Assembly: GCA_026625185.1 (NCBI GenBank)
Contig: CP113000.1
Coordinates: forward strand, 1,725,622 to 1,757,621
Source: Thermodesulfobacteriota bacterium
GTDB lineage: Bacteria; Desulfobacterota; WTBG01; JAGOGO01
Length of the DNA: 32,000 nucleotides
Reading direction: 5' to 3'
The notes under the pieces are model-generated. The model ran no database searches. It was not told the origin of the DNA and worked only from the letters and a program-made list of their open reading frames with translations. Positions 12,155 through 28,025 of this stretch are shown in pieces. The translations under genes were made by a program, and so were the position numbers. How positions within the stretch are numbered: position 1 is the stretch's first letter; every line of letters begins with the position of its first letter.

Positions 12155-12763
12155 TTAACTGATAAAGGGGTCCATTGTTTTTATGCTGGCCGCTTTTTCA
12201 TGGGAAAGGCCTTCAGCCATCTTTTTTAGGAGCAGGGAAAGCTGTTTCAACTCTTCCTGGGAAAGGCAGCGCATCAAAGGGACAAACTCTTCTTCATAGG
12301 CAGAAAGAATCTCTCCAAAAAGCTGTTCCCCTTTCGGGGTAAGTCTCACCCATATTTTTCGGCGGTCTTTTTTATCCTGATCCCTGATAACAAACTCATC
12401 CCTTTCCAAATGATCCACAATCGTGGTGATATTTCCTTTGGTAACCAGCAATTCTTTACCCAGCTTTCCTAGTGGCATATCTCCCTGGAGTCCTATGGTC
12501 GTTAGCACGTAAAGTTGGGGCAGGGTCACCCCTTTCTTACCGACTTTTTTTCGGATTTCAGTGGAAATAACGGCATAAACCCTTAAAATTCTTACCCACA
12601 CCCCGATAGAGAGTTCTTTTAGTAAGCCCCTTCTGGAACGGGATAAAGACGATGTAAGGGTTTTTATGCCGGGAGAATCTTGCATTCTACTAAAGAAACT
12701 AAGATTTTTTAAATTTAGATTTTTATCATAATAATTTAGAAAAGTCAATTTATTTCCCGACAA
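12155..12763 (-). CDS. MarR-family transcriptional regulator (start codon ambiguous)
   Basis: The winged-HTH core reads LPQLYVLTTIGLQGDMPLGKLGKELLVTKGNITTIVDHLERDEFVIRDQDKKDRRKIWVRLTPKGEQL. The longest ORF (TTG at 12763) gives 202 aa, long for MarR. An internal ATG at 12685 would give 176 aa. A TTGACT-N17-TAAAAA promoter-like element lies inside the putative extension. Neither start has an SD. Confidence 0.8.
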   Translation of the reverse strand: MSGNKLTFLNYYDKNLNLKNLSFFSRMQDSPGIKTLTSSLSRSRRGLLKELSIGVWVRILRVYAVISTEIRKKVGKKGVTLPQLYVLTTIGLQGDMPLGKLGKELLVTKGNITTIVDHLERDEFVIRDQDKKDRRKIWVRLTPKGEQLFGEILSAYEEEFVPLMRCLSQEELKQLSLLLKKMAEGLSHEKAASIKTMDPFIS

Positions 12764-13089: not shown

Positions 13090-14223
13090 TTACTTTTTTC
13101 GATTGGTATATTCAGCGAAGATCATTGCTACTGTTCGATAAATCATGTGGGCAAACTTTGAGTAGGGAAGGTAGGCGAGAAGATAAAACACAAAGACCAA
13201 ATGGAGGACATAAAAAAGGTATGCCAAAAAAGCAGCTTCTGCCATGCGGGCAAACTGGGTAAGGAATCCGGTGATAGCCACGCACAAAATAGTCCAGGTA
13301 AAAACTGAATCAAGATAGGTGCCGGCTCCGGCCTTATCCTTGTTGACAGAACGGTTGTAAAGCACCAGCAGACATCCCACCACAATTGCTATCCCTCCCA
13401 AATTCCCCGCGACCTTGACTACACTAAAAAAAGACCACGGAGGCAAAAATAATTCATTGCCTTTGAAAAACAGTTTTTCTGCCCAAATACCTCCCGCACT
13501 GATAGATGTGGCGATAAGGCATAACACAAAGCCGTAGAATATGCAAAGATGGGCGTAATACCTTATTTGGTTTGCTACACAGTCATTGAATTTTTCGTGC
13601 CGCAAAATTTTGCTCATTACCGGTATCAGGTAAGACTTGGAGGCGCTAAGCAGCGTTGGCGCACCATCTATTCCCTGGATAAGAATGGTCCAGAACCTGT
13701 TTGTTCCCGTAAAAAGACCGATAAATACCAGAAGGGTAAAAACTCCTGCAGCAATATCGATTACTTCATATGGAATAAAGTTCCTGAAAAGGATTGGTCC
13801 AGAAGGTATGGTATTACCCCGCAGCATCAGCAATAAAAGAAGAATGGGAAACCCAAAAAGAAGGGGGAGATACCGAGCCTGACTTAAAATTTTACCCATG
13901 AATCGAGGAAAGGCTAAATTGATAAAACTATAGTTACGGACAGCGGCAAGGACTTCACCCGGTTTTGCGCCTCTCGGACAATGCACTGAGCAGTCATTGC
14001 AGTTGTAACAGAGCCAGATATCCGGGTCTTGCATCAGCTTGTCTTTTAAACCCCATTGCGCCCAAATCATCTCTTTTCGAGGAAAAGGGTTGTCCTCAGG
14101 GGTTAACTTGCAGACGACAGAACAGGTGGCGCACTGAAAACATTTTTTTAGCGAGTCACCTCCCAGGGATTTAACGTCTTTAATAAAATCAAGATCAGGT
14201 TTTACAATAGTCGAATCAGCCAT
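13090..14223 (-). CDS. qmoC: Quinone-interacting membrane-bound oxidoreductase subunit C (QmoC)
   Basis: 377 aa. The N-terminus has two ferredoxin-type Cys motifs (CFQCATCSVVC, CYNCNDCSVHCP). About six TM helices follow (NarI/HdrE-like heme-b domain). AGGAGG SD. The gene lies directly after qmoB. Confidence 0.9.
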   Translation of the reverse strand: MADSTIVKPDLDFIKDVKSLGGDSLKKCFQCATCSVVCKLTPEDNPFPRKEMIWAQWGLKDKLMQDPDIWLCYNCNDCSVHCPRGAKPGEVLAAVRNYSFINLAFPRFMGKILSQARYLPLLFGFPILLLLLMLRGNTIPSGPILFRNFIPYEVIDIAAGVFTLLVFIGLFTGTNRFWTILIQGIDGAPTLLSASKSYLIPVMSKILRHEKFNDCVANQIRYYAHLCIFYGFVLCLIATSISAGGIWAEKLFFKGNELFLPPWSFFSVVKVAGNLGGIAIVVGCLLVLYNRSVNKDKAGAGTYLDSVFTWTILCVAITGFLTQFARMAEAAFLAYLFYVLHLVFVFYLLAYLPYSKFAHMIYRTVAMIFAEYTNRKK

Positions 14224-14235
14224 GATTCATTCCTC

Positions 14236-16449
14236 CTACATTCCTTTATAGGGATTGGGGCCAACTTTATCAATGGTTTCCATGAAACTATCAATGATGT
14301 TGGGAATCTTATTGAAATCAGAGTGAGCAACCAGCTCGAAACGAATTCGGTCGGATTCAAGCTTCAGCCGGTCCAGGGTTTCCTTAACCTTTATCATCCG
14401 ATAGCTGGCCAGTTCACTCCCTTTTACCATATGGCATTGATAATCATCGCCGTGCTTGCAGGCTAAAAGGAGCACGCCGTCAATGCCCTTGGAAAGGGCA
14501 TCGGCAATCCAGACCAGGTTCGTTGAACCCACACAGCGCAAAGGGATGATCCGCGCGTAAGGAGTGTAGGTAAGACGATTCATTCCCGCCATATCGATAG
14601 CGGGATAAGCGTCGTTTTCGCAGGCCAGGATGAGAATTCTGGGCTTTTCTTCATAATCTTCCGGAACTTCGATATTCTTTATCATGGAACCGATCATATC
14701 CACCGAATAATCCTTAAAAGAAATGATTCGTTCCGGGCAGGATCCCATACAGATAGCGCAACGCCGGCACCGGGTAGGATTAGGGAGAGGATTGCATTTT
14801 TCGTCTTCATTGATGGTGCCGAAGGGGCATTCCTCAGTGCACCGTTTGCACTGGGTGCAGCGCTGCATAAAAAAGTCAGGGTAGGTCCGGTCACCGGCCC
14901 GTGGATGGACTGCTTCGCCCCGGGAACTCATCTCCACGCACTGAATCGCTTTAAGGGCGGCGCCGGTAGCGTCTTCCATGGTTGAAGCCAGGTCTATGGG
15001 AGAACGCACCGCTCCGGCCGCGTAAATACCGGTGCGCCGGGTCTCGTAAGGAAAACAGACAAAGTGGGAGTCGGGGAACCCATACTTAAGTGGCGGCAAT
15101 TCCGGTCCCTGTCGGTAATCAAGGTTGAGGATATTTGATCTGATGATGATATCAGTTGGTGGCGGCGGTTGATTTTCCTTTTTATCCTTTTCTTCCTCCA
15201 CCACAATCTTGATTGCCTCTCCGAGAGCCGTGGCTGGCACCATGCCGGTTGCCAGCACCACCAAGTCTGCTTCGATTTTTATATTTTCACCGAGCAGCGT
15301 GTCTTTTACCTCTACTGTTACCGCGGCATCGTTTCCGTTTACCGCTGTGACTTCGCCCTTGGTAAAAAATATACCGTCATCCTGCTGGACGGCTTTGTAA
15401 AAATTTTCATAAAGCCCGGGGGTACGCATGTCTTTATAAATAATATACACCTTGGCCTCCGGGTTCTGCGTACGGATGTACTTGGCTTGTTTAAGCGATT
15501 CCATACAGCAGATAGCAGAGCAATAAGGAAGATGATTATTATCCCGCGATCCGGCGCAAAGAATAAAAATCACGCTTCCGGCTGTCTTCCCGTCCGAAGG
15601 CTTGTTTATTTTTCCCCCGGCGACAAGCTCTTCCAGCTGTTCCCGGGTGACGATATTTTTCGAGGTCCCGTAGCCCAGATGTCCAAGCTTACCGGCATCA
15701 TAAGAAACCGCACCCGCGGCATTTATAATAGACCCGGCTCGCTCAGAAACCGAGTTCCCATTTTGTTTTATCGCCACGTCAAACAATCCCGGCATGCCAC
15801 TGATCTTTTCTATGGTAGCTGAGGTGTAAACCTTGACATTGGACGCCTGGTCAATTTCGCGCATCAGGGCTTCGATCATGCCCGAATCCTCGATTGCTTC
15901 GAAGGGGGATTGGGTAGGGCAAAGTTTGGTTTGCTTTTTAACCCATCCGCCCAGGGTATTTTCCTTTTCCACGAGAATGACATTGTAGCCGGTTCGGGAA
16001 GTTTCCAATGCCGCGGTCATTCCCGCAAGCCCACCGCCAACCACCAGAATGTTTTTCACGATATCTTCAACCTGGTAGGGGGTAACAAAATCCATCTTCT
16101 GTATTCGCACCACTCCCATACGCAGAGTGTCTTCTGCCAGCATCTGAGTGTCTTCATCATTGGGTTTATGACACCACGCCACCTGCTCCCGCAAGTTTAC
16201 GCGGTTTAAAAGCACGTCGGGTCCGAATTGAAAAACTTCGGTTTTTACCCGCTGGGAGCAAGCGGCGATAACTACCGCATTGACCCCTTCGCTGATATCC
16301 TGTTTGATGAGAGCGGGCCCTTCCTTGCCGCATAAGACGTCATGGCTCTTGCAAATCGGAGTTTTAGCGATTTTTCCCAATGCCTCTATATTAATGGATT
16401 CTCCAATCTCGCAGCCTTTACAAATATACACACCGATCTTTTTATCCAT
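14236..16449 (-). CDS. qmoB: Quinone-interacting membrane-bound oxidoreductase subunit B (QmoB; HdrA-like flavoprotein with MvhD-like C-terminal domain)
   Basis: 737 aa. It has the dinucleotide motif VVGGGLAGMTAALE and two 4Fe-4S motifs (CTQCKRCTEECP, CRRCAICMGSCP). The C-terminal MvhD-like region reads ILILACENDAY ... LRCVGSTN ... LLLACKHGDDYQCH. GAGGAGG SD. Confidence 0.92.
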   Translation of the reverse strand: MDKKIGVYICKGCEIGESINIEALGKIAKTPICKSHDVLCGKEGPALIKQDISEGVNAVVIAACSQRVKTEVFQFGPDVLLNRVNLREQVAWCHKPNDEDTQMLAEDTLRMGVVRIQKMDFVTPYQVEDIVKNILVVGGGLAGMTAALETSRTGYNVILVEKENTLGGWVKKQTKLCPTQSPFEAIEDSGMIEALMREIDQASNVKVYTSATIEKISGMPGLFDVAIKQNGNSVSERAGSIINAAGAVSYDAGKLGHLGYGTSKNIVTREQLEELVAGGKINKPSDGKTAGSVIFILCAGSRDNNHLPYCSAICCMESLKQAKYIRTQNPEAKVYIIYKDMRTPGLYENFYKAVQQDDGIFFTKGEVTAVNGNDAAVTVEVKDTLLGENIKIEADLVVLATGMVPATALGEAIKIVVEEEKDKKENQPPPPTDIIIRSNILNLDYRQGPELPPLKYGFPDSHFVCFPYETRRTGIYAAGAVRSPIDLASTMEDATGAALKAIQCVEMSSRGEAVHPRAGDRTYPDFFMQRCTQCKRCTEECPFGTINEDEKCNPLPNPTRCRRCAICMGSCPERIISFKDYSVDMIGSMIKNIEVPEDYEEKPRILILACENDAYPAIDMAGMNRLTYTPYARIIPLRCVGSTNLVWIADALSKGIDGVLLLACKHGDDYQCHMVKGSELASYRMIKVKETLDRLKLESDRIRFELVAHSDFNKIPNIIDSFMETIDKVGPNPYKGM

Positions 16450-16453
16450 CGCG

Positions 16454-17710
16454 TTACCTCCTCACCGTAGATTGAATTGCTTTGAGTGTTGCTGCCGTGG
16501 CGTCCTGAACAGCGGCTGCCACATCCATCGGTTTTCTCACACAACCGGCGCCGTAAATACCTCGCTTGTTTTGATCCCATAAGACGAAGCCGTTTTCTTC
16601 GTAGGAAACATCAGCAGGTATTCTTGTCTGAACAGTTGCAGGCACCATGCCCGTGGCCAGAACAACCATGTCTACGGTCTCTTTCGAGAGCTTGCCTGAA
16701 AGTTGATCCTCCGCGGTCACCGTGAGCGCTCCGGTGGCCGGATCTTCGGTGATCTCTGCGACTTTTCCCTTGATAAAAGAAACCTTTTGATCTTTGGCCA
16801 CCTCAGTATAGAAGTCTTCGAATTTTCCCAACGCACGAATGTCGATATAGAAAATATAAATCTGAGCGTCCGGATACTGCTCATGGACGTAACGGGAATG
16901 TTTTAACGAGGCAAGGCAACACACTGAGGAACAGAAAGGAAGAAAGTTTTCATCCCGTGATCCGGCGCACTGCACAAAGGCAATGCCGGCAATTTCTTTC
17001 CCGTCGGAGGGACGTACGATTTTCCCTTTGGTGGGACCGTTCAATGAGGCCATACGCTCCATCATCACATTGTTAATAACATTTTTATGTTTTCCAAATC
17101 CGTAATATTCCACCTTACCTGCGTCAAAAGGCTGCCACCCGGTAGCCCACACGATTGCTCCCACCTTGAGGTCCACGATCTCAGGTTTCATGTCTAAATC
17201 GACGGCGTTATATTTGCAGGCGTCCTTGCATTTTTGAGCATCAGGGGTGCCGATAATCTGAGGAGAGATTACGTAGCGCAATGGAAAAGCAAAACTAAAA
17301 GGAAGATATGCCCCCTTTATGGTGTCCATGCCATAATTAATTTCGTTGGGGATTTCTGTGGAGCAAGCTTTTGCACAATCGCCGCACGCGGTGCAATTTT
17401 CATTCACATAACGAGGATTAACTTTTACCTTAACCTCATACGCTCCTTCCTGCCCGGATATGCTTTCAACTTCCGCCAACGTAAAATAGTGAATTCGGGG
17501 ATTATCCTTAATCCGACGAAAATTGATTTCCAAACCGCAGCTCGGAGGGCAGAGTTTAGGAAAATACTGATTGTTCTGGGCCACTCTTCCTCCTAAGGTG
17601 GGGTTTTTTTCCACCAGGTAAACATCGCAGCCTATTTCGGCAGCTTCCACGGCTGCGGTTATACCGCTCATCCCACCTCCTACCACTAATATTGTTTTGT
17701 TATCGCTCAT
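16454..17710 (-). CDS. qmoA: Quinone-interacting membrane-bound oxidoreductase subunit A (QmoA; HdrA-like flavoprotein)
   Basis: 418 aa. It has VVGGGMSGITAAVEAAE, CTACGDCAKAC, and an HdrA-like core collinear with the N-terminal half of QmoB. GGGAGG SD. Confidence 0.92.
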   Translation of the reverse strand: MSDNKTILVVGGGMSGITAAVEAAEIGCDVYLVEKNPTLGGRVAQNNQYFPKLCPPSCGLEINFRRIKDNPRIHYFTLAEVESISGQEGAYEVKVKVNPRYVNENCTACGDCAKACSTEIPNEINYGMDTIKGAYLPFSFAFPLRYVISPQIIGTPDAQKCKDACKYNAVDLDMKPEIVDLKVGAIVWATGWQPFDAGKVEYYGFGKHKNVINNVMMERMASLNGPTKGKIVRPSDGKEIAGIAFVQCAGSRDENFLPFCSSVCCLASLKHSRYVHEQYPDAQIYIFYIDIRALGKFEDFYTEVAKDQKVSFIKGKVAEITEDPATGALTVTAEDQLSGKLSKETVDMVVLATGMVPATVQTRIPADVSYEENGFVLWDQNKRGIYGAGCVRKPMDVAAAVQDATAATLKAIQSTVRR

Positions 17711-17923: not shown

Positions 17924-19813
17924 TCATTTTTTCAGCGGCAAAATCTCCCGCTTTAACATCACCCATTCCCCGGTCTTTGGAATCCATCTGCAATTGGCGA
18001 ACACCTGCCAGTTCTTCTGGTCGATATCCGGGTAATCAGCCCGATAATAGTAACCCGGCCATCTGGTTTCTTCGCGAAACAAGACCGTCCGAATATGAGC
18101 TTCCGCTTGCCACATTCGGTGAACATTTTCCCAGCATCGCATCAGTTCATGAAGGTCCTCAGCAGCGAGTTTATCTGAGTCCTCTTTTAAGTATGCCAGA
18201 AGCTCCAAGCCTTTCTCCAGGAGAGGTTTATTGGTGTTGAAGTGCATGGTTACACCACCGGCATATTCGTCCATGATCTTCTGAAGTCGAAACATAAAGT
18301 CCTTTGGCTTAATATAGTTCGGATGAATGTTGGGATCGCTCGATTCTTCCCGGTTTTTCTTGAATGTGTCGAGAGGCTGGAGGATTTTCTTCTTAAGTTT
18401 CTCAACGTGAGCTTTATCCGCGTTGGGCTGGGTATTGTTTTCAACAATAAACCGAATAGCGGATTTAGCGGCAATTCTTCCTTCAGCGTGAGAGCCGGAA
18501 GAATATTTGTGGCTTGAAGCTCCGGAGGCATCTCCAGCGCAAAAAAGCCCTTTAACGGTGGACATGTTACAGTATCCCCAGTTGTATTCTGTTGGCGCAA
18601 CATCTTCAGGCCCGCTTACCCAGGCACCGGAACCGCCGGAATGGGAACCGATAAAATAAGGTTCGCAGGGATCAATTTCCGAAGGTTGCTTTTCGGGTTC
18701 AACGTTCGTGGCAGCCCAAAGTAGGGACTGGGTAATGGTCATATCGAGAAAGTCTTCCCAGGCTTCATTTTCCAGTTCTTTAAGTTTTTTTCTTGCTTCC
18801 TTTTCATCCGGCGAGGCGTCAGCTATGTTTTTGATTGCCTCGGCAGTTTGCATATAAAGAGGACCATTGCCGCCGAAGAGGTCGATCATCCATAAGTGAT
18901 TTCTAAGGCAGGTAGGGATGGGTTTAGTAGTTCCGTAGGGAGCATATTTTTCAAGCTCATCGATACGAGTCACCAAAGAGTCCTCTCCTAACGCATTGGT
19001 GGAATTTGATTTATACAACAAAAACCAGGCTCCCACCGGACCATGGCCATCTTTGAAACGCATCGGTATAAACCGCACTTCCTGACCGGTCATCTCAGCG
19101 CCCGCTTTAAGGGTAAAATACGCGCTGGATCCGGTGTTCCACGGGGCATACCAGGTGCGGCCAAACCCTTCGCCGGTAGATCGTGGTCGGAACACATGTG
19201 CCGCCCCGCCCATGGCGACTAATACGGCTTTTGCTTTGAATATATAAAATTTTTGGTCGCGGACGCTGAAACCGACGGCGCCGGCAATCCGGTCGCCATC
19301 CAGAAGGGGCTCAACAATAAAAACTCTTTCGAAAAGATGCTCCTCCAAGGGGCCGAGGCTTTTTAAGGCATTTTTTGCGGCTTCTGCAATGATTACTTTG
19401 TACGACTCTCCATTAATCATAATTTGCCATCGGCCTTCATGGACGTATTTGCCGTCTTCGTCCTTCCAGATGGGAAGTCCCCAGCGCTCAAAAAGATGAA
19501 CGGAAGAATCCACATGCCGGGCAATGTTTAATACCAAGTCTTCCCGGGTAATGCCCATCATGTCATTGCGGACGTAAGCCACGTAATCATCAGGGCTGTT
19601 AGACTCATCAGCCAGGCCGAGGTATAGATTCAAAGCCGAAAGACCCATTGCCACCGCACCGCTCCGGTCGGTGGCGGCCTTATCAACCATAACGACGTTG
19701 AGACCGTTTTTTTTGGCCCAGTAAGCTGCTTCCACCGCGGCGCCACAGGCGGACATTCCGCCGCCGATGATCAAAAGGTCTGTGATTACTTCGATTGTTT
19801 TAAAATCAGCCAT
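17924..19813 (-). CDS. aprA: Adenylylsulfate (APS) reductase alpha subunit, copy 1 (host-like codon usage, adjacent to qmoABC)
   Basis: 629 aa. Motifs present: LLIIGGGMSACGAAVEAAYWAK, GLSALN, GRTWYAPWNTGS, RFIPMRFKDGHGPVGAWFLLYK, EPYFIGSHSGGSGAW, HKYSSGSHAEGR, RWPGYYYRADYP. No SD upstream (TTATTAATAACTGCGAT-ATG). Confidence 0.9.
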   Translation of the reverse strand: MADFKTIEVITDLLIIGGGMSACGAAVEAAYWAKKNGLNVVMVDKAATDRSGAVAMGLSALNLYLGLADESNSPDDYVAYVRNDMMGITREDLVLNIARHVDSSVHLFERWGLPIWKDEDGKYVHEGRWQIMINGESYKVIIAEAAKNALKSLGPLEEHLFERVFIVEPLLDGDRIAGAVGFSVRDQKFYIFKAKAVLVAMGGAAHVFRPRSTGEGFGRTWYAPWNTGSSAYFTLKAGAEMTGQEVRFIPMRFKDGHGPVGAWFLLYKSNSTNALGEDSLVTRIDELEKYAPYGTTKPIPTCLRNHLWMIDLFGGNGPLYMQTAEAIKNIADASPDEKEARKKLKELENEAWEDFLDMTITQSLLWAATNVEPEKQPSEIDPCEPYFIGSHSGGSGAWVSGPEDVAPTEYNWGYCNMSTVKGLFCAGDASGASSHKYSSGSHAEGRIAAKSAIRFIVENNTQPNADKAHVEKLKKKILQPLDTFKKNREESSDPNIHPNYIKPKDFMFRLQKIMDEYAGGVTMHFNTNKPLLEKGLELLAYLKEDSDKLAAEDLHELMRCWENVHRMWQAEAHIRTVLFREETRWPGYYYRADYPDIDQKNWQVFANCRWIPKTGEWVMLKREILPLKK

Positions 19814-19851: not shown

Positions 19852-20150
19852 TTATGCTGCAGCATAGCGAACATATTTTTGGGAAAAATATTTCTTGACC
19901 ACATGAGGCTGACGTTGACGGTTACGCAGGTAACCTCGTACATTTTTAACCAACTATTGCTGATCTTTGGCGCGACGTCTTCCCACAGCATTGCTCTTTA
20001 CATCCTGGTTAAGTAGCTCGTCAGGATTAAGTTCTGGGCAGTAGCTGGGCAAAAAGAATAAACGAATATGTTCCCTATGTTCGGTTAGTAATGAATTAAG
20101 AAACTGGGTATTGAATAAACGAAGAGGGATAATGTGCAATTTCCCCCTGC
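19852..20150 (-). mobile_element. IS630-family transposase remnant (3' third only, with an in-frame stop), filling the aprB1-aprA1 spacer
   Basis: The minus-strand translation reads ...HIRLFFLPSYCPELNPDELLNQDVKSNAVGRRRAKDQQ-TAG-LVKNVRGYLRNRQRQPHVVKKYFSQKYVRYAAA-stop. It carries the LPxYxPELNP DDE-region signature and the typical IS630 C-terminus. The in-frame TAG is at 19954-19956. No N-terminal two-thirds and no recognisable terminal repeats are present. Boundaries are approximate. Confidence 0.75.
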
Positions 20151-20152
20151 CT

Positions 20153-20593
20153 CTATTGTTTCGGCCTTGGAACCGAGCGTGTCAAAGACGCCGGTTCAGT
20201 CATCAGTTCTCCTGCGCTCAGATCCTCGGGGCCTTCCGGGAAACCTCCCAAAGGATCAGCGTAGCCTTCGGGCGTGGTCCGAATGAGAAACTTAAACCGT
20301 TTGGTCATTCGGTTGCGGAAGGTGATGGTCCACAAAATATTATCCGATCCCCGCAAGGGGATAACACTTGCTCCTAGCGGAATAAAGTCGGAATATCCTC
20401 GTACGTCAATTGCCTGTTGGGGACAGATTTTAACGCAGTTGTAACATTCCCAACACATCTGGGGATCCCGGTTGTAAGCCTTTAGGGTCGCCGGGTTGAT
20501 GGCCATGAGATCATTGGGGCAGATATATTGACAGGCGGCCTTATCTTGCCCCTTGCAGCCGTCGCATTTTTTCACGAGCACAAAACTTGGCAT
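20153..20593 (-). CDS. aprB: Adenylylsulfate (APS) reductase beta subunit, copy 1
   Basis: 146 aa. Motifs present: MPSFVLVKKCDGCKG..ACQYICPND, CWECYNCVKICPQQA, IPLRGSDNILWTITFRN..KRFKFLIRTTPEG. Eight of nine Arg codons are CGN. No SD upstream (AAGCTTAAGTTCAAAAT-ATG). Confidence 0.9.
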   Translation of the reverse strand: MPSFVLVKKCDGCKGQDKAACQYICPNDLMAINPATLKAYNRDPQMCWECYNCVKICPQQAIDVRGYSDFIPLGASVIPLRGSDNILWTITFRNRMTKRFKFLIRTTPEGYADPLGGFPEGPEDLSAGELMTEPASLTRSVPRPKQ

Positions 20594-20602
20594 ATTTTGA
20601 AC

Positions 20603-20716
20603 TTAAGCTTGTCATGGTTCGACAAGCTCACTATGACAAGTGACCCTGAGCACTTTGATTCCGTTCGTCCTGAGCTTGTCGAAGGACGAACGTCACTCAG
20701 CACAGTCTTGTCGAAT
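20603..20716. repeat. REP/MITE-like palindromic intergenic element (RPELVEGR / FDKLT type)
   Basis: Two perfect hairpins are present: AGCTTGTC-7nt-GACAAGCT (20606-20628) and CGTTCGTCC-13nt-GGACGAACG (20662-20692). Internal direct repeats also occur: GCTTGTC x2, CTTGTCGAA x2, CTGAGCAC/CTCAGCAC. Its translation (FDKLTMTS...VRPELVEGRTSLS) matches pseudo-proteins I recall from a widespread environmental repeat family. Confidence 0.6.
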
Positions 20717-20773
20717 GGTAACTATTTACTTATGTCGATCACTATAGAGACTAAAACATTGAATGTCTCACAA

Positions 20774-21595
20774 CTAAATAGCAGACCCAAAACCTTCCGC
20801 TTCATGTGAGTGCTCCCCTTTTTTATATTCACCCCTTACTTTCAACGTTTCTTCAAGCATCAGTATATATTTAAGGTATTTGAATCCGAACTTCATTAGC
20901 GCTGTCTCATCAGTCTTTATTTTTTCGACCTCCTCCTTATCAATCTCAAGGATATCGAGAAGTTTACTCTCAAAAACGAATTTTCTGAACTTATCTATAT
21001 CATAACTTGCCAGGTAAAGCATGGCCTGTTTGTTTGGGGTGAGTTTGGACTGCTCAGATGTGTTTCTCCTCAACTGGATCTCCTTCCACTCCCTATTCAT
21101 CTCATCATAAAGGTCAGCCCCCTGTTCAATCCTCCAACTCCCTATCGTCCACTCTCTGTCTCCCTGATAACCAAGACAATTCGGATCTTTTATAAAGAAG
21201 TAGAATTCTTCCTTTATTGGCCCTTTATCTGAGTCCACTATCATGATACCTTGACCGACTGGATAATAGCGACAGTTAGAGGGCCGATCTTCATAAATAC
21301 TGCAACCAGCAGGGGTAACAAAGGGACATTTTTCCTCATTATCATCCATCGTCTTAAGCACTGCATAAGGATGTGATGTTTCTTCATCAATATAGGTGTA
21401 GGTGTATTTTTCGAGGAAATCTCCTGAAGAGATTCCCAACCTATCTTTTATTCTTAGGATATCATAGGGGGTAAGAATTATACTTTTACGGCTACAACAT
21501 TTAGTAAAGCAACTGATATCATGATGGCATCTGAATTTGAATTCAGCATTCAGTGTGCGATTAATAGGATCTACAGTACTCATATCCATTAACAT
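20774..21595 (-). CDS. YkgJ/UPF0153-family cysteine-cluster protein (COG0727-like), paralogue 2
   Basis: 273 aa. Motifs present: FRCHHDISCFTKCC, LTPYDILRIK, CPFVTPAGCSIYEDRPSNCRYYP, NCLGY. It aligns along its full length with the upstream paralogue. An AAAGGGG SD lies 6 nt upstream. Confidence 0.8.
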   Translation of the reverse strand: MLMDMSTVDPINRTLNAEFKFRCHHDISCFTKCCSRKSIILTPYDILRIKDRLGISSGDFLEKYTYTYIDEETSHPYAVLKTMDDNEEKCPFVTPAGCSIYEDRPSNCRYYPVGQGIMIVDSDKGPIKEEFYFFIKDPNCLGYQGDREWTIGSWRIEQGADLYDEMNREWKEIQLRRNTSEQSKLTPNKQAMLYLASYDIDKFRKFVFESKLLDILEIDKEEVEKIKTDETALMKFGFKYLKYILMLEETLKVRGEYKKGEHSHEAEGFGSAI

Positions 21596-21638
21596 AGATT
21601 ACCCCTTTCTGGCTTAATCTTGATGGAGTCGTAAAAAG

Positions 21639-22412
21639 TCAAAATTTCCTCTTAGCTTGCAGAACCTTATCAAATACTTTATCTTTGAGTCTTAAAGTGT
21701 CTTCCCCGAAAAGATTGAATCTTACCCATCTATATCCAAAACTTAGGAGTTCTTCCCCGTCTTCTTTTACCCTTTCAATAATTTCCCTCTCCACATCATA
21801 GATGTCAAAAAACCTGGTTTCAAAAAGAAATTTCTTAAACTCATCGAGGTCATAACAGGCCGTATAAAGCAACTTCGACCTTCCTGGATCAAGTTTATTA
21901 GCCTTCAGGAAGTAATCATGATGGGTAATTTCTTTATAAGATTCATTCATTATATCATAGATCTCGATCCCCTGAGCCTTCTTCCACTCATCAATTGTCC
22001 ATTGTTTTTCCTCTTTAAATCCAAGACATGAGAGCTTTTTCCCCATCAAAAACTCTTCTTTCTCAGAGGAAGCCGGGAATAGAGGATACATCCGGCATGC
22101 CCAGGGCCGATCTTCGTAAATCTCACAACCGCAGGGAGTAACAAAAGGACACTGCTTGTTTTCATCTTCCCTCATCTTAAGCACCACTAAGGGTAACCCC
22201 TCATCTCCTAAGAGCGGAATGGTATAATCCTTTAAGAATTCCCCTGAAGACAATCCCATAGCCTTTTTCATTCTCAGGACATCATAAGGCGTGAGAAAGA
22301 TATTTACATCAGCACAGCAGACGTTAAAGCAGGAAAGCTCATTGTGGCATAAAAATTTGAATTCGCCCTCCGGAGAGAGCATCAGACGTTTTTCACCGTA
22401 CTCTTCATTCAT
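21639..22412 (-). CDS. YkgJ/UPF0153-family cysteine-cluster protein (COG0727-like), paralogue 1
   Basis: 257 aa. Motifs present: FLCHNELSCFNVCC, LTPYDVLRMK, CPFVTPCGCEIYEDRPWACRMYP, SCLGF. No clear SD. The start lies 27 nt after the terminator hairpin. Confidence 0.8.
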   Translation of the reverse strand: MNEEYGEKRLMLSPEGEFKFLCHNELSCFNVCCADVNIFLTPYDVLRMKKAMGLSSGEFLKDYTIPLLGDEGLPLVVLKMREDENKQCPFVTPCGCEIYEDRPWACRMYPLFPASSEKEEFLMGKKLSCLGFKEEKQWTIDEWKKAQGIEIYDIMNESYKEITHHDYFLKANKLDPGRSKLLYTACYDLDEFKKFLFETRFFDIYDVEREIIERVKEDGEELLSFGYRWVRFNLFGEDTLRLKDKVFDKVLQAKRKF

Positions 22413-22439
22413 AATTCATAGGCCATTTTCTCATTAAAA

Positions 22440-22469
22440 TTTGGGGGCGACGGTAAGGTCGCCCCCAAA
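22440..22469 (-). terminator. Rho-independent terminator/attenuator between aprA2 and the ykgJ-like genes
   Basis: Perfect 12-bp stem TTTGGGGGCGAC / GTCGCCCCCAAA with a 6-nt loop. On the minus strand it is followed immediately by TTTTAAT. It starts 12 nt after the aprA2 stop. Confidence 0.75.
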
Positions 22470-22481
22470 GATACATTTGCT

Positions 22482-24398
22482 TTAAATAATAGGAATCATT
22501 GGCCTTTTAAGTACGCTCCATTCCTTTTTATCCACATCGTACTTAACGTTGATAAATTGCTTCTCACCTTCATCCAGTTTGAGGTAATCGGTTTTATAGT
22601 AGTATCCAGGCCACCTTGACTCTTTCCTGGCAAGCCTTGTCCTTGCACATGCCTCACCAACATAGACCCTATGGACACTCTCCCATGCCCTCATTAACTC
22701 ATGAAGGTCTTTGGCAGCAAGCTTCTCTACATCTTCTGCGCAGAAACCCAACTTCCAGAGGGCGATTTCGAGCAGCTGGTCATTTGTTCCATACAATGTC
22801 TCCCAACCACCAACGTATTCTCCCATTATCTTCTGCAGCCTGAACAGGAAATTATGAGGGGAGATATAATTAGGATTCACATCGGGACTGGTTGTATAGT
22901 TGTTTTGTTCTTCATAGTAGGCAAGGGGTTTCAATATTGTTTCCTTAAGTTTCCCTATGGTAGCATCAGATATCGTCGGGGTATAGGCCTTCTTGTCATT
23001 GGCATACTTCAATGCTGACTTTGCTGCAATCCTTCCCTGTACGTGTGAACCGCTTGAGAACTTATGGGCGCATGCTCCCACCCCACACCCTGCGGTGAAC
23101 AAGCCGTTCACCGTGGTCATAAGATTGTACTGCTCTGGGAATGCATCAGCATATTCTTTTGGCATTAGATCTTCAGCGCCACAGGTCCAGGAACCGACAG
23201 AGCAGGCATGCGAACCAATGAAAACGGTATCCGACAACTGAAGTTCCATCGGTTTTTCCAATGGGTCAACATTATGAGCAGCCCAGTTTGTGGCGCCGGC
23301 GATGGTCATGTCGAGGAAGTCCTCCCACGCCTCACTCTCATACTCTCTTATCTTCTTTTTCAGTTCCTTTTGATCTGTTATCTCCTTCTTAAACCTATCT
23401 ACCACCCGGTTTGTGTGCATGAGATAGGGTGTTTTACCTTCTTTCGCGCAGAGTATCATCTCATAATTTCTTAAAGCAGTCGGACAGGGCTTCGCATTTG
23501 AATAAGGTGCCCACTTAGCTAACTCTTCTGGATAAGCACCAACGTATGGCCCATCGAGGCCATTTGTTGCCGGGGTCTTAAAGAGCAGAAAGAATGTGCC
23601 CACGGGACCATAGGAATCCTTGAACCTCGGAGGAACAAAGGTCACATCCATCTGTGTAAGCTCACCACCTGCCTGGAGTACAAGAGCATAGATTGATCCG
23701 CTAACAAAGGGCGGCATCCATGACCTTCCAAAACCTTCAGCCTGAGACCTTGGCCTGAATACATGGACCGCGCCACCCATCAGGGCGATAGTTGCTTTAG
23801 CCTTAAACACGTAGATTTTATCTTCCCTAACGCTAAAGCCGATTGCACCGCATACTCTGTTGGGTTCCTTTTCATCCTTGAGTAGATGGGTGATCATGAC
23901 CCTTTCAATGATCTGGCCTTTATCACCAAGAGTGGCCATAGCGTTCTTTGCCGCTTCTGCCACAACAATCTTATAACTCTCGCCGGAGATCATTACCTGC
24001 CATTCACCTGATTTTCGATAGTTTCCTGTCTCATCCTTCCATATCGGAAGACCCCATTTATCGAAGTGTTTGACGGTTGAGTCAACATGCCGTGCGACAT
24101 CATAGACAAGGTCCTGTCTTGTCAGACCACACTGGTCATTTGTCACATACTCAACAAACCTTTCCGGCATACGGGGATTCTCGGTTACCTTTCCGTCCAT
24201 TCCCATATAGGTATTGATGGCGGAAAGCCCCATGGCCACCGGGCCACTTCGGTCAATGGCAGCTTTGTCTACGAGTGTTACCTTTAAACCCAGCGGCTTT
24301 GCCCAGTAGGCGGCTTCCACCGCAGCACCACAGCCGGCCATTCCTCCACCGAGTATCAATACATCAGTCTCCACAACTTCGGTTGCAAACTCTCTCAT
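22482..24398 (-). CDS. aprA: Adenylylsulfate reductase alpha-subunit homologue, copy 2 (divergent, foreign codon usage)
   Basis: 638 aa. Motifs present: VLILGGGMAGCGAAVEAAYWAK, GLSAIN, GRSWMPPFVSGS, TFVPPRFKDSYGPVGTFFLLFK, VFIGSHACSVGSW, HKFSSGSHVQGR, RWPGYYYKTDY. AAGGAGA SD 7 nt upstream. Arg codons are mostly AGG/AGA and Lys codons mostly AAG. Confidence 0.85.
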   Translation of the reverse strand: MREFATEVVETDVLILGGGMAGCGAAVEAAYWAKPLGLKVTLVDKAAIDRSGPVAMGLSAINTYMGMDGKVTENPRMPERFVEYVTNDQCGLTRQDLVYDVARHVDSTVKHFDKWGLPIWKDETGNYRKSGEWQVMISGESYKIVVAEAAKNAMATLGDKGQIIERVMITHLLKDEKEPNRVCGAIGFSVREDKIYVFKAKATIALMGGAVHVFRPRSQAEGFGRSWMPPFVSGSIYALVLQAGGELTQMDVTFVPPRFKDSYGPVGTFFLLFKTPATNGLDGPYVGAYPEELAKWAPYSNAKPCPTALRNYEMILCAKEGKTPYLMHTNRVVDRFKKEITDQKELKKKIREYESEAWEDFLDMTIAGATNWAAHNVDPLEKPMELQLSDTVFIGSHACSVGSWTCGAEDLMPKEYADAFPEQYNLMTTVNGLFTAGCGVGACAHKFSSGSHVQGRIAAKSALKYANDKKAYTPTISDATIGKLKETILKPLAYYEEQNNYTTSPDVNPNYISPHNFLFRLQKIMGEYVGGWETLYGTNDQLLEIALWKLGFCAEDVEKLAAKDLHELMRAWESVHRVYVGEACARTRLARKESRWPGYYYKTDYLKLDEGEKQFINVKYDVDKKEWSVLKRPMIPII

Positions 24399-24418: not shown

Positions 24419-24862
24419 TTATTTCTTTGTTGGAAGCTCTTTTACTCCCATTATGTCAGGCTCTCCGAGGAGTAACTGATTGGCCAAATCTGCTGCCTTT
24501 GCCTCGGGAAATCCCTCCAGCGCCTTTATTGAACCCTCTGCTGTAGTTCTTGTTGGATACTTAAACCTCTTAATTCTTCCATCCCTGAAGGTGATCGTCC
24601 ACATGATGTCCTCTGATCCTCTCAGTGGGGTTGAGGCAGCACCAAGGGGCATAAAGTCAGCATAACCCCTTACGTCCATAGCCTGCTGTGGACATATCTT
24701 TACGCAACAGTAACACTCCCAGCAATAGTTAGGTTCCTGGTTATAGGCTTTCATCTTAACTTTATCCAATACCATTAAATCATTGGGACATATATACTGG
24801 CATGCAGTTTTGTCCTGCCCCTTGCAGCCATCACATTTTTCCGTAATTACATAACTTGGCAT
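24419..24862 (-). CDS. aprB: Adenylylsulfate reductase beta-subunit homologue, copy 2
   Basis: 147 aa from the ATG at 24862 (MPSYVITEKCDGCKG, the canonical AprB N-terminus). The ORF-track GTG at 24874 lies inside the SD (GTGGAGGTAATT-ATG). Motifs present: ACQYICPND, CWECYCCVKICPQQA, PLRGSEDIMWTITFRD. All six Arg codons are AGA/AGG. Confidence 0.9.
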   Translation of the reverse strand: MPSYVITEKCDGCKGQDKTACQYICPNDLMVLDKVKMKAYNQEPNYCWECYCCVKICPQQAMDVRGYADFMPLGAASTPLRGSEDIMWTITFRDGRIKRFKYPTRTTAEGSIKALEGFPEAKAADLANQLLLGEPDIMGVKELPTKK

Positions 24863-24987
24863 AATTACCTCCACAAAAAAAAATTAACACTTCTTGTTTA
24901 CAAAAATTGTTTTCACTGAAACCTTGCGGTCTTACCACCTCCTTTCTGAGAAACTATCTTAAAAGCAAAAAAATTTCCTCTACGTTC

Positions 24988-26214
24988 TTATTTTGTTACC
25001 ACGTTTCCGGTTGCTGCTCCGTGGAGTTTTATTTCCACTTTCTTTTCTAAGCCCTGATAATATTCTTTTAAGATTTCTAAAACCTCAGGACGAGAGAATT
25101 GGGACGACAACATACCCCCTTCGGAGAGGGTTTTACGGACGATAGTTCCACTTAACAGAACCCGGTCATCCTTACCATGAGGACAGGTCCTCATGGATGC
25201 CATCCCGTCGCACTTTTTACAGTAAAAGGTCCAATCAATGGGAAGGGGTTTTAGTTTGAGAGCGTCTTCAGGAATTTCCAGGAAAATTTTCTGAGCATCG
25301 AAAGGCCCATAATAATCCCCAACTCCAGCGTGATCCCGGCCGACAATCAAATGGCTGCAACCGTAATTTTGCCGGAAGACCGCATGGAGCAATGCTTCTC
25401 TCGGGCCGGCATAGCGCATCTCCATGGGGTACCCACCCATAATGGTCGTATTTTTTACAAAATATTTTTCTACCAAGATATCGATCGCCTTGACTCTTAC
25501 GTCAGCGGGTATATCCCCTTCTTTAAGTTTTCCTAAAAGCTGGTGGATATATACCCCGTCACAGACTTCAATAGCTATCTTGGCGAGATACTCGTGAGAT
25601 CGGTGCATGGGGTTGCGAAGCTGGAGAGCCGCCACCGTCGCCCAGTCTTTTTCTTCGAAAAGTTTGCGAGCCTCTTCGGGTCGCTGGTAAAGTCCGGCAA
25701 ATTCTTTGGGGAAGTAACTTTCGCTCAGCACTTTTATTGGTCCGGCTAAATTTATTTCGCTCTGCTCCATTACCTTGGCAACGCCTGGATGCGCAGTATC
25801 TTCAGTCCAGAAAACTTTTTTGCATTCATGCGCTTTATCAATCTTATATTTTTCGGTTATTTTCATTGTGGCCAGAATTTCATCGTTTTCCGTGTCGAGA
25901 AGAGCTACCTCTTGACCAATCGAGAGGGAATCGGACAAGGCTTTGGTTGCCGAGATGGTAATGGGGATAGGCCAAAAAAGACCGGTTGCCATCTTATATG
26001 AATCGCAAATCCCTTTCCAGTCATCATAGCCCATAAACCCTTCCAGCGGGGTAAAGGCGCCGATGGCCAGCATAAGCACATCGCCGGCTTCCCGAGAGGT
26101 CATGGGAACTACTGTGAGCGTCTTTGCCTTTGCCTTTTCTTCTTCTAAGGCCTTACCTTCTAATAATAACGGCTTGAGCGCTCCTCCTCCATGGGGTGGA
26201 ACTAATTTTGACAT
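24988..26214 (-). CDS. sat: Sulfate adenylyltransferase (ATP sulfurylase)
   Basis: 408 aa. Motifs present: [30 protein letters not shown], and a C-terminal Cys/His pattern ([15 protein letters not shown]). AAGGAGG SD. Confidence 0.95.
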
Positions 26215-26757: not shown

Positions 26758-27456
26758 TTATTTTTCGGAAATCTTTTGAAGTCGGGCAGGATTTAGAAGG
26801 GAAATTGAGTTTTTACCAATATCAATCAAATTTTCTCGCTTAAAATCTTGGAGAATACGTATCGCGGTCTCCTCACAAAGGCCTACTACTTCAGCAAACT
26901 CCACCCGGGACAAAGGCAAATCGAAATCAAGTCGTTGCTCATCAAAGAGGTTTTCAGAGAGATCCAGTACGAAGGATGCTATGCGGGAACGAGCATTTTT
27001 TTGTCCCAGTTCCATTATTTTTTTATAGGAACGAACCAACTTTTTTTTCATGAATTCAATAAAAATTATCCCGGTCTTTGGTCTTCGTTTCAGCAGGTTT
27101 TCTAACAGGTTTTTATCAATAGCGCATAGTTCAGAATCCACTAAAGTTTCAGAACTATGATGACCAAAATCCTCAAAAAGACAATGAAGGTTTAGGATAT
27201 CTTCCTTTTTAATAATGGAAAGAATTTGTTGCTTTCCGCCCGGCAATGATTTGTAGGTCTTTACCAGACCCTTTTTTACTATATAGATATTTTGAACTGG
27301 GTTTGCCTCCATACAGATGACCTGGCGCTTTTTATAGCGGATCGGAAAAGTTATTGAGCAGATATCTTCTTTACTCTCTTCATCAAAGTCTTTCCAGGCA
27401 TGTCCATAGAATACGATACAATTCTTACAAATTGTCCCTTTGCAGTAAATCGGCAT
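26758..27456 (-). CDS. CRP/FNR-family transcriptional regulator with an N-terminal Cys cluster
   Basis: It has a cNMP-binding-like beta-roll plus a C-terminal HTH (LSRVEFAEVVGLCEETAIRILQDFKRENLI). I place the start at the ATG at 27456 (MPIYCKGTICKNC) because a GGAGA SD lies 8 nt upstream. The ORF-track TTG at 27471 would include that SD in the coding sequence. Cys residues fall at positions 5, 10 and 13. Confidence 0.85.
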   Translation of the reverse strand: MPIYCKGTICKNCIVFYGHAWKDFDEESKEDICSITFPIRYKKRQVICMEANPVQNIYIVKKGLVKTYKSLPGGKQQILSIIKKEDILNLHCLFEDFGHHSSETLVDSELCAIDKNLLENLLKRRPKTGIIFIEFMKKKLVRSYKKIMELGQKNARSRIASFVLDLSENLFDEQRLDFDLPLSRVEFAEVVGLCEETAIRILQDFKRENLIDIGKNSISLLNPARLQKISEK

Positions 27457-28025
27457 ACTGATTATCTCCAATAAAGAAATATTTTAATTAGTCAACCCTG
27501 AAAAATAGGCTTTAAAATCTTTATTAATACTGAGTGGGTCTTTGAAAATTAAATAGAATTACAAAAAAAACTGCCATTTTTCTGATGATTTCATGATAAA
27601 TTAATTGAAATGTCAATCACCTTAGCGTGGAACATGAAAAAAATAACCCGCATGGCCAACCGTAAGGAAGAAAAACAGACCTTAAGAACAAACAAACAAG
27701 CCGACCCTAACCCCAAACTATTTCAAGACCTGCCTGTCGGCAGACAAGGAGGCACCTCTTTCACAATTATACTCAGTCTTCAAAGAACAATTTCTATCAA
27801 AAAAACGTATTTTTCGAGATGTACTAATTAATTATATATTAAAGTTAAGCTATTTGAAATAAAAATTTTTTTATGCTAAAAAATCCATAAAGAGATTTTC
27901 CCGTCTTCTCCTCAATGGATTAGATACCTTCTGGAAGATTATAAAATTTTTAATGTATGAAATTTAGTGTACCATTTTAAATTGATATTAACCAGATAAT
28001 TATGATTTGGAAGGAGGGAAACATT

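Follow-up and report, generated by a model that had tools for sequence, protein, structure and literature searches.

The 32,000-nt window analyzed here (contig CP113000.1, positions 1,725,622 to 1,757,621, of the Thermodesulfobacteriota bacterium assembly GCA_026625185.1) encodes ATP sulfurylase (Sat), two copies of adenosine 5'-phosphosulfate (APS) reductase (AprBA), and the quinone-interacting membrane oxidoreductase (QmoABC). The genes all lie on the minus strand in the order sat, aprB2, aprA2, Y1, Y2, aprB1, aprA1, qmoA, qmoB, and qmoC, and both AprA copies pass the NCBIfam equivalog model TIGR02061, as both AprB copies do for TIGR02060. Our subject is the adjacent gene pair Y1 and Y2 between the two aprBA copies, which the first-pass annotation had put forward as candidate APS reductase accessory proteins. 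The NCBI protein identical to Y1 is named 'MAG: YkgJ family cysteine cluster protein [Thermodesulfobacteriota bacterium]', where MAG denotes a metagenome-assembled genome. We found that Y genes follow aprA in many phyla, most of them uncultured, and that Y co-diverges with AprB and AprA, which together give good support to Y1 and Y2 as candidates for an accessory role.

Relatives of Y were collected in a scan that covered one genome per GTDB species and returned at least 582, of which the best 80 (43-82% identical to Y1) were taken with 10-kb flanks as loci L001 onward; L001 and L002 are copies of the window's own sequence. The Sat, AprB, AprA, Y, and Qmo proteins of the window were mapped onto these 80 loci by tblastn. 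In 72 of the 80 genomes aprA lies directly upstream of Y, in one it lies in the same cluster, in five the arrangement is undecidable, and in two Y is unlinked to apr. Y is immediately after aprA in 72 of the 75 decidable loci, across about ten phyla, which indicates that its genomic context is not random. Of the 67 loci with at least 2.6 kb of sequence upstream of Y, 64 have aprB followed by aprA there on the strand of Y, with the end of aprA less than 1 kb away; eight further loci have an aprA that is truncated at the contig end, and five have no upstream sequence. A Hydrothermarchaeaceae archaeon (L062) has the order aprBA-qmoABC-sat-Y-Y, and the two loci that are unlinked to apr within 10 kb are L069 (Ammonifex), with Y behind formate-dehydrogenase-type genes, and L072.

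The commonest order is sat-aprB-aprA-Y(-Y2)-qmoABC, with sat immediately before aprB in 46 loci. Downstream, 53 loci have enough sequence to show which gene comes after the last Y (a single Y or Y2); it is qmoA in 28 of them and qmoC in 7, and the gap from the last Y to qmo, measured from tblastn hit ends, is 15-200 nt in 34 of the 43 loci with qmoA or qmoC no more than 1.5 kb away; in single-Y loci it is mostly below 120 nt. In most loci Y accompanies Qmo instead of taking its place, and the earlier suggestion that Y substitutes for Qmo is unlikely to describe a general role, since the next gene is qmoA or qmoC in 35 of these 53 loci. The positions of sat and qmo shift around the block (e.g., L009, L026, and L033), which indicates that aprB-aprA-Y(-Y2) is the conserved unit. 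Taken together, these results show that across many phyla the aprB-aprA module has the Y gene as a conserved third or fourth component.

By record title, the carriers include Nitrospirota/Thermodesulfovibrionia, Thermodesulfobacteriota, Syntrophobacteraceae, Dehalococcoidia, Ignavibacteria/Kryptoniota/Bacteroidota, Zixibacteria, Elusimicrobiota, Omnitrophota, Abyssobacteria, an Aquicultor (Actinomycetota) MAG, and one archaeon. The order aprBA-Y1-Y2 of the window (architecture A) is found in Nitrospirota, Thermodesulfobacteriota, and Syntrophobacteraceae; aprBA-Y-qmoABC (architecture B) in Dehalococcoidia and some 'delta' MAGs; and aprBA-ZR-Y (architecture C) in 29 loci. ZR is a cysteine-rich protein of about 90 aa with an Ogr/Delta-like zinc finger (PF04606, E = 1e-11) that is always encoded directly before a single-copy Y (e.g., L051 9672-9953 and L056 9667-9936), and L072 has the ZR-Y pair at a site that is not linked to apr. 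No ZR homologue was found in the two-Y lineages, the window included. The single-copy Y of other phyla groups with Y1, which indicates that Y1 is its ortholog, and Y2 forms a separate clade of 34 sequences that is limited to two-Y lineages. A link specific to the AprBA2 type of enzyme, as first proposed, did not survive this comparison because single-copy Y follows AprA1-like enzymes in other phyla. In certain Syntrophobacteraceae (L032 16387-18451; also L027, L028, L035, and L037), an HdrCB-like protein with a Fer4 domain and two CCG domains takes the place of qmoC, and a third Y paralog, about 38% identical to Y1, lies behind the qmoA-qmoB-HdrCB-like genes.

Two modules, sat-aprB2A2-Y1-Y2 and aprB1A1-qmoABC, make up the composite cluster of the window. 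Its aprB2A2-Y1-Y2 genes share 71-91% identity with their counterparts in L005, L011, and L023, and only about 61% identity was seen between the qmoABC of these loci and that of the window. Among the 80 loci, a second aprBA between Y2 and qmoA was found only in the window, its close relatives L003 and L007, and the Syntrophobacteraceae locus L027.

We also compared pairwise protein distances in the manner of a mirror-tree analysis across the 34 loci that carry all six proteins. Y correlated most strongly with AprB (r = 0.84) and AprA (r = 0.81), less with QmoB (r = 0.68) and QmoA (r = 0.62), and not with Sat (r = -0.03); the reference pairs gave r = 0.95 for AprA-AprB, 0.88 for QmoA-QmoB, and 0.44 for AprA-QmoA. 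Partial correlations were 0.70 for Y and AprA given QmoB and 0.44 for Y and QmoB given AprA, which, with AprA and QmoA themselves correlated at merely 0.44, places Y between Apr and Qmo. These distances suggest that the history of Y is closest to that of AprBA with some independent tie to Qmo, a pattern that would be expected of a physical partner but equally of co-transferred neighbors.

Turning to the proteins, Y1 and Y2 are 42% identical across 238 residues (E = 5e-72), and both match PF03692 (CxxCxxCC), at 41.0 bits (E = 3e-10) for Y1 and 41.4 bits (E = 2e-10) for Y2 against a gathering score of 23; it is the sole Pfam family found in either. The cysteine pattern of Y1 is C22-x5-C28-x3-C32C33, C88PF-x5-C96-x9-C106(RxYP), and C129LG, and both proteins contain the motifs LTPYD[VI]LR and IYEDRP. 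All eight cysteines (C22, C28, C32, C33, C88, C96, C106, and C129) are invariant in family alignments of 19, 61, and 127 sequences, with the qualification that the first four, but not the other four, belonged to the motif by which the 127 sequences were selected. The first motif is CX5CX3CC rather than CX2CX2CC. The C-terminal 120 aa or so contain no conserved cysteine, as C186 of Y1 is C, S, or L in relatives, and no transmembrane segment was detected (maximum 19-residue hydropathy of 1.16 for Y1 and 0.55 for Y2 versus 2.31 for QmoC). In these respects the first-pass annotation was borne out: it had described alignable paralogs of 257 and 273 aa from the YkgJ/UPF0153 family that share eight cysteines in this pattern and the two motifs, with a nonstandard first-cluster spacing, a C-terminal region devoid of conserved cysteines, and no transmembrane segment.

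Both proteins are acidic (pI about 5.2) and evolve under purifying selection, with dN/dS of 0.16-0.22 for Y1 and 0.17-0.38 for Y2, compared with 0.07-0.10 for aprA2. Y1 has 3054 homologues, of which every one listed has a precomputed PF03692 match, and the JGI name on Y proteins is the COG0727 name 'Fe-S-cluster containining protein'. The named close homologues obtained from protein searches and a cluster look-up all come from MAGs, which is probably why the family stayed unstudied. No NCBIfam model matched Y1 or Y2 at E <= 0.1, and at the same threshold neither had a Fer4-family Pfam match, whereas AprB1 and AprB2 match several. These features point to Y1 and Y2 as soluble cytoplasmic eight-cysteine metalloproteins, probably of the iron-sulfur type, that constitute a distinct long subfamily of the PF03692 superfamily, with an N-terminal cysteine-cluster domain and a conserved helical domain of about 120 aa.

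AlphaFold2 models of Y1 (pLDDT 79.8, pTM 0.79) and Y2 (pLDDT 77.0, pTM 0.77) each consist of an N-terminal alpha/beta domain that holds the cysteine motifs and an all-helical C-terminal domain. Model confidence is lower in the cysteine-motif domain, as expected for an empty metal site. Foldseek found no match to either model in the PDB at E <= 0.001 (best TM-scores of 0.2 or less), BFVD held no structural match to Y, and a sequence-profile search of the PDB returned only a chance match (E-value 0.24). With these PDB searches empty, the Y fold yields no functional lead. Kinship with the HdrB-type CCG domain was ruled out, as hhalign gave 0.3% probability against the HdrCB-like proteins.

A closer lead comes from FliB, the flagellin lysine-N-methyltransferase of Salmonella, in which an N-terminal CX4CX3CC motif binds one oxygen-sensitive [4Fe-4S] cluster (PMC8598068). 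Judged by the motif as printed in that paper, the CX5CX3CC and eight invariant cysteines of the Y proteins may correspond to the CX4CX3CC and eight conserved cysteines of FliB; FliB and Y are both soluble and have neither a solved structure nor another recognizable domain. By analogy, we infer that each Y protein would carry at least one oxygen-labile [4Fe-4S] cluster on CX5CX3CC, and the other four invariant cysteines may hold a second cluster or metal. Unlike FliB, which is linked to flagellin and acts on it, Y is linked to aprBA, and we found no flagellar genes in the window or the 80 loci. The Y proteins resemble Escherichia coli YkgJ (UPF0153/COG0727) in matching PF03692 and in their C.IY..RP..CR motif. 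However, YkgJ is a single-domain protein of 109 aa, whereas Y1 and Y2 have the extra helical domain and a different spacing of the first motif, and hhalign of Y against YkgJ aligned 18 columns at 16% probability. To our knowledge, YkgJ has neither an assigned function nor a link to sulfur.

Known partners and helpers of redox enzymes offer further comparisons. QmoABC, QmoAB-HdrCB, and AprM are the known electron-input partners of AprBA that have Fe-S clusters and are proposed to deliver electrons to AprB, and the Y gene is likewise co-located with aprBA. In contrast to them, Y is soluble, has no HdrA-, HdrB/C-, or AprM-like domain and no flavin adenine dinucleotide or heme motif, and is unrelated in sequence. 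Maturation and assembly proteins of the NapF, NarJ, and TorD type are encoded directly downstream of catalytic subunits, co-evolve with them, and are expected at lower abundance; Y shares this gene logic with them but no homology. The extra gene of the Desulfovibrio qmo operon, DVU0851, was rejected as an equivalent of Y, as it is reported to have no homologues outside Desulfovibrio.

One form of the gene arrangement has been seen before. Thiel et al. (2019) reported 'sat-aprBA-hyp-hyp-qmoC' in Ignavibacteria-like MAGs ('Thermonerobacter thiotrophicus'), with two conserved hypothetical genes to which no family, distribution, or function was assigned (PMC6338057). These are very probably the ZR and Y families, as the arrangement matches the aprA-ZR-Y-qmoC order of Ignavibacteria/Kryptoniota-type loci; the window differs from it in having Y1-Y2 in place of ZR-Y. 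In the literature that we searched, no link of the YkgJ/PF03692 family to aprA or sulfate reduction was found, and the main text of a large synteny study of the Dsr/Apr/Qmo pathway, searched by term, makes no mention of such a gene. PF03692 is a known but uncharacterized domain family, and the interest of the Y genes lies in their position at the electron-input step of APS reductase.

The 69-nt spacer between aprA2 and Y1 (22413-22481), whose length agrees with the first-pass annotation, contains the strongest terminator-like site of the approximately 15-kb region from 12.8 to 27.6 kb. This hairpin has a 12-bp stem with 8 G-C pairs, a UUUUAAU tail, a predicted dG of -23.5 kcal/mol, and a z-score of -3.1. 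The same GC-rich stem, GGGGCGAC(C)-loop-(G)GTCGCCCC, followed by a T-rich tail, is present exactly once immediately behind the aprA stop codon in each of 23 loci (21 besides L001 and L002; e.g., L003 9123-9144, L006 9802-9824, and L028 9886-9908). The stem is sequence-invariant in 22-23 loci from Nitrospirota, Thermodesulfobacteriota, and Syntrophobacteraceae while its flanks vary, which amounts to sequence constraint without covariation. The spacer hairpin is also designated GGGGCGACC, and a different recurrent stem (CCUCCGGGCGCC...) occurs in single-Y lineages. A cruder scan found a hairpin with a T-rich tail in 40 of 64 aprA-Y spacers. Rfam had no match in the window, which indicates that the hairpin does not belong to a described family. 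In type-C operons, a hairpin of this kind also precedes qmoC, a bona fide subunit gene that lies downstream of Y; this suggests that the signal means expression at the level of Qmo and below that of AprBA and is not evidence against a subunit. That the hairpin behind aprA is invariant hints that the ratio of aprBA to qmo expression is under conserved post-transcriptional control.

The Shine-Dalgarno sequence is weak for Y1 and good for Y2. The GC content of third codon positions (GC3) is 0.43 for Y1 and 0.40 for Y2, as in background genes (0.40-0.45), compared with 0.50 for aprA2 and 0.52 for aprA1; the codon usage that Y was said to have in common with aprA2 was thus not confirmed, and we dropped codon usage as evidence of co-expression because it does not discriminate within the window. 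A sigma-70-like site inside Y1 (21823-21795) was disregarded, as promoter-like matches in the region were no commoner than in shuffled sequence.

The wider family extends beyond APS reductase. An exhaustive profile search of 1.84 billion representatives returned 230 clusters at E <= 1e-30, 1080 at E <= 1e-10, and 2792 at E <= 1e-3. Among distant relatives, P0340 (L085, E = 1e-44) adjoins aprBA-qmoABC-sat in divergent orientation on the opposite strand, and in L090 (5295-7803) dsrC is followed by the 320-aa Y-like P0254 and then by a 258-aa remote PF03692-like protein. The latter keeps only the CPF...C..Y.P..C motif, and a pyruvate:ferredoxin oxidoreductase (PFOR) gene lies on the same contig. 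P0288 (L083 2942-5014) is a 690-aa protein in which an N-terminal radical S-adenosylmethionine (SAM) domain is fused to a full-length Y-like module; it adjoins a GmrSD-type gene, outside any sulfur context. Downstream of P0270 come a NUDIX gene and, after it, a gene for a pyruvate formate-lyase (PFL)-like, glycyl-radical-type enzyme, and P0304 and P0366 are in unrelated contexts. The sampled full-length distant relatives all keep the eight cysteines, which suggests that the two-domain protein is a more general module of which one large branch was recruited to Apr. Internal branches of a neighbor-joining tree were 0.007-0.03, too short to judge whether the apr-linked members are monophyletic relative to the others.

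We favor, with a probability of roughly 0.4, the reading that Y acts as an Fe-S redox partner, docked on AprBA and connecting the enzyme with the Qmo/Hdr module. Y1 and Y2 would form a heterodimer, for which a single Y, or Y with the small zinc-finger protein, would be the equivalent elsewhere; this dimer would dock on AprBA and pass or gate electrons between a Qmo/Hdr-type module and the surface [4Fe-4S] cluster of AprB. The hairpin after aprA, acting as a leaky terminator or a stabilizer, would set Y production at Qmo-like rather than AprBA-like levels. This reading is favored because Y lies between aprA and qmoA or qmoC in operons whose other genes are all structural, because its spacing to qmo is tight, because the Y1/Y2 paralogs and the ZR/Y pair suggest a hetero-oligomer, because the third paralog accompanies qmoAB-hdrCB, and because Y co-diverges with both Apr and Qmo. 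It would also fill a gap in earlier biochemical work, in which QmoABC bound AprBA yet electron transfer was not obtained between the purified proteins; transfer from Qmo to Apr has never been reconstituted, and a further, third partner was proposed that was not found in the gene cluster (PMC3333476). The distant relatives beside aprBA-qmoABC-sat (L085) and beside dsrC (L090) lend additional support. A bolder version would make Y that postulated third partner itself, an Fe-S adaptor that enables AprB to receive electrons from Qmo or a low-potential cytoplasmic donor throughout a large, mostly uncultured world of sulfate reducers and sulfur disproportionators, with a fold that has no solved representative; we regard this version as unlikely, although not far-fetched.

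Several observations weigh against a redox partner. Apr and Qmo work without Y elsewhere, as Y is missing between the adjacent aprA and qmoA of cultured Thermodesulfovibrio, green sulfur bacteria have sat-aprBA-qmoABC with no gene in between, and in the published operon of Desulfovibrio vulgaris qmoABC comes directly after aprBA. The ferredoxin-type motif CxxCxxCxxxCP is absent from Y1 and Y2, Y1 combines a weak ribosome-binding site with a position behind a strong hairpin, and full-length relatives occur in radical-SAM fusion, NUDIX/PFL-like, or housekeeping contexts. Co-transfer of neighboring genes would give an equal mirror-tree signal without physical contact. Finally, the only characterized PF03692 protein, FliB, is an enzyme and not an electron carrier (PMC8598068).

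The last point leads to the main rival, which we consider possible but clearly short of even odds: that Y1 and Y2 are FliB-like Fe-S enzymes or maturation factors, with a [4Fe-4S] cluster and possibly SAM or radical chemistry, that act catalytically and substoichiometrically to modify AprBA or Qmo post-translationally or to help assemble or repair their cofactors. Such a role would fit the near-identical CX4CX3CC and eight conserved cysteines of this [4Fe-4S]-dependent protein lysine methylase, the only characterized relative (PMC8598068). The radical-SAM fusion of P0288 and the Y-like gene beside the NUDIX and glycyl-radical-type genes point in the same direction. An expression of Y below that of aprBA, as expected from the hairpin, the weak Y1 ribosome-binding site, and the background-like GC3, would suit a catalyst, and close tracking of AprBA evolution is also seen with dedicated maturases; the conserved helical C-terminal domain could bind a substrate, and model organisms manage without Y. 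However, AprBA is fully functional in organisms that lack Y, Pfam detects no methyltransferase or SAM-binding signature in Y, and the NCBIfam search was empty as well. The two or three paralogs per cluster and their tight spacing to qmoA or qmoC look more like structural partners. We also know of no modification of AprBA that would require such an enzyme.

Other roles appear less probable still. Y could act in sulfur chemistry, either in the handling of or protection from sulfite or in DsrC-linked thiol/persulfide redox reactions, through a Cys-Cys dyad and a cluster in the manner of HdrB/DsrK. The Y-like pair directly downstream of dsrC in L090, the invariant adjacent C32-C33, which recall the CCG motif of HdrB-type disulfide reductases, and the third paralog beside an HdrCB-like protein with two CCG domains all speak for it, but the profile-profile comparison of Y with the HdrCB-like protein (0.3% probability) shows no detectable CCG homology, linkage to aprA is far commoner than linkage to dsr, and the mechanism of APS reductase requires no thiol, which leaves this role improbable. 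We give similarly little credence to Y as a redox- or Fe-S-based sensor that regulates the expression or activity of apr-qmo, in single-Y lineages together with the Ogr/Delta-type protein encoded upstream. Ogr/Delta proteins are transcription activators, the gene for ZR directly precedes Y in 29 loci and accompanies it apart from apr in L072, and Y comes immediately after a conserved RNA hairpin. On the other hand, Pfam finds no DNA- or RNA-binding domain in Y, two-Y lineages have no ZR homologue, the PF04606 match spans only a four-cysteine zinc ribbon, a fold that also serves protein-protein contacts, and regulators rarely sit between structural genes in so many phyla. Least probable, and by our judgment very much so, is that the linkage is a historical accident in which the gene of a generic Fe-S protein without a role in APS reduction hitchhiked as an aprBA cassette spread laterally. 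In favor of it, the aprBA module has clearly moved between phyla, the window is itself a composite of two modules, distant family members occur in unrelated contexts, and two close relatives (L069 and L072) are unlinked to apr. Nevertheless, the adjacency is kept at Y identities down to 43-50% and through all three architectures (Y1-Y2, Y alone, and ZR-Y) while sat and qmo are rearranged, both Y1 and Y2 are under purifying selection, and a relative at E = 1e-44 still adjoins aprBA from the opposite strand.

Within the bioenergetics of sulfate respiration, Y is a concrete and clonable candidate for a part in the route by which electrons reach APS reductase. If Y were instead an enzyme, it would represent an undescribed maturation or modification step of a key enzyme of the sulfur cycle and a second functional anchor for PF03692 after FliB. 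The Y gene could also serve to mark and separate Apr lineages in metagenomes.

Table 1. Genes and other features of the apr-qmo cluster, in the order of transcription; ORF, open reading frame
Feature	Position	Strand	Evidence and remarks
sat, ATP sulfurylase	24988-26214	-	PUA_2 and ATP-sulfurylase domains on the identical gene in L002; opens the sat-aprB2A2-Y1-Y2 module
aprB2, APS reductase beta subunit	24419-24874	-	TIGR02060, 204 bits; PF12139
aprA2, APS reductase alpha subunit	22482-24398	-	TIGR02061, 779 bits (cutoff 642); precedes Y1 and Y2
Hairpin between aprA2 and Y1, terminator-like or RNA-stabilizing	22440-22469	-	UUUGGGGGCGACC-loop-GUCGCCCCCAAA, then UUUUAAU
Y1, 257 aa, soluble eight-cysteine PF03692 protein	21639-22412	-	ORF; Pfam
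Y2, 273 aa, paralog of Y1 with all eight cysteines	20774-21595	-	ORF; Pfam; pairwise alignment
Structured spacer Y2-aprB1, junction of the two modules	20594-20773	-	Fold z-score -2.6; single copy in the window
aprB1, second APS reductase beta subunit	20153-20593	-	TIGR02060, 194 bits; directly downstream of Y2
IS630-type (DDE_3) transposase remnant between aprB1 and aprA1	19852-20139	-	DDE_3 match on the gene called in L001; internal stop in the translation
aprA1, second APS reductase alpha subunit	17924-19813	-	TIGR02061, 915 bits (cutoff 642)
qmoA	16454-17710	-	ORF; domains of the identical gene in L001
qmoB	14236-16449	-	ORF; domains of the identical gene in L001
qmoC	13090-14223	-	ORF; domains of the identical gene in L001; qmoABC, quinone-interacting membrane oxidoreductase

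Some details of the cluster lie outside the Y genes. For aprB2, the likelier start is the ATG at 24862, which is preceded by GGAGG, yields 147 aa, and is the start called in L002, versus the GTG at 24874 of the mechanically derived ORF. The IS630 remnant (about 267 nt) is missing from the otherwise near-identical aprB1-aprA1 spacers of L003 and L007, and it could exert a polar effect on aprA1. The spacer between Y2 and aprB1 contains nested inverted repeats, and its plus-strand reading includes '...RPELVEGR...', a peptide typical of pseudo-ORFs in repeat elements. The cluster is bracketed by regulators, with a CRP/FNR-family gene (26758-27471, minus strand) upstream of sat and a MarR-family gene (12155-12763, minus strand) downstream of qmoC.

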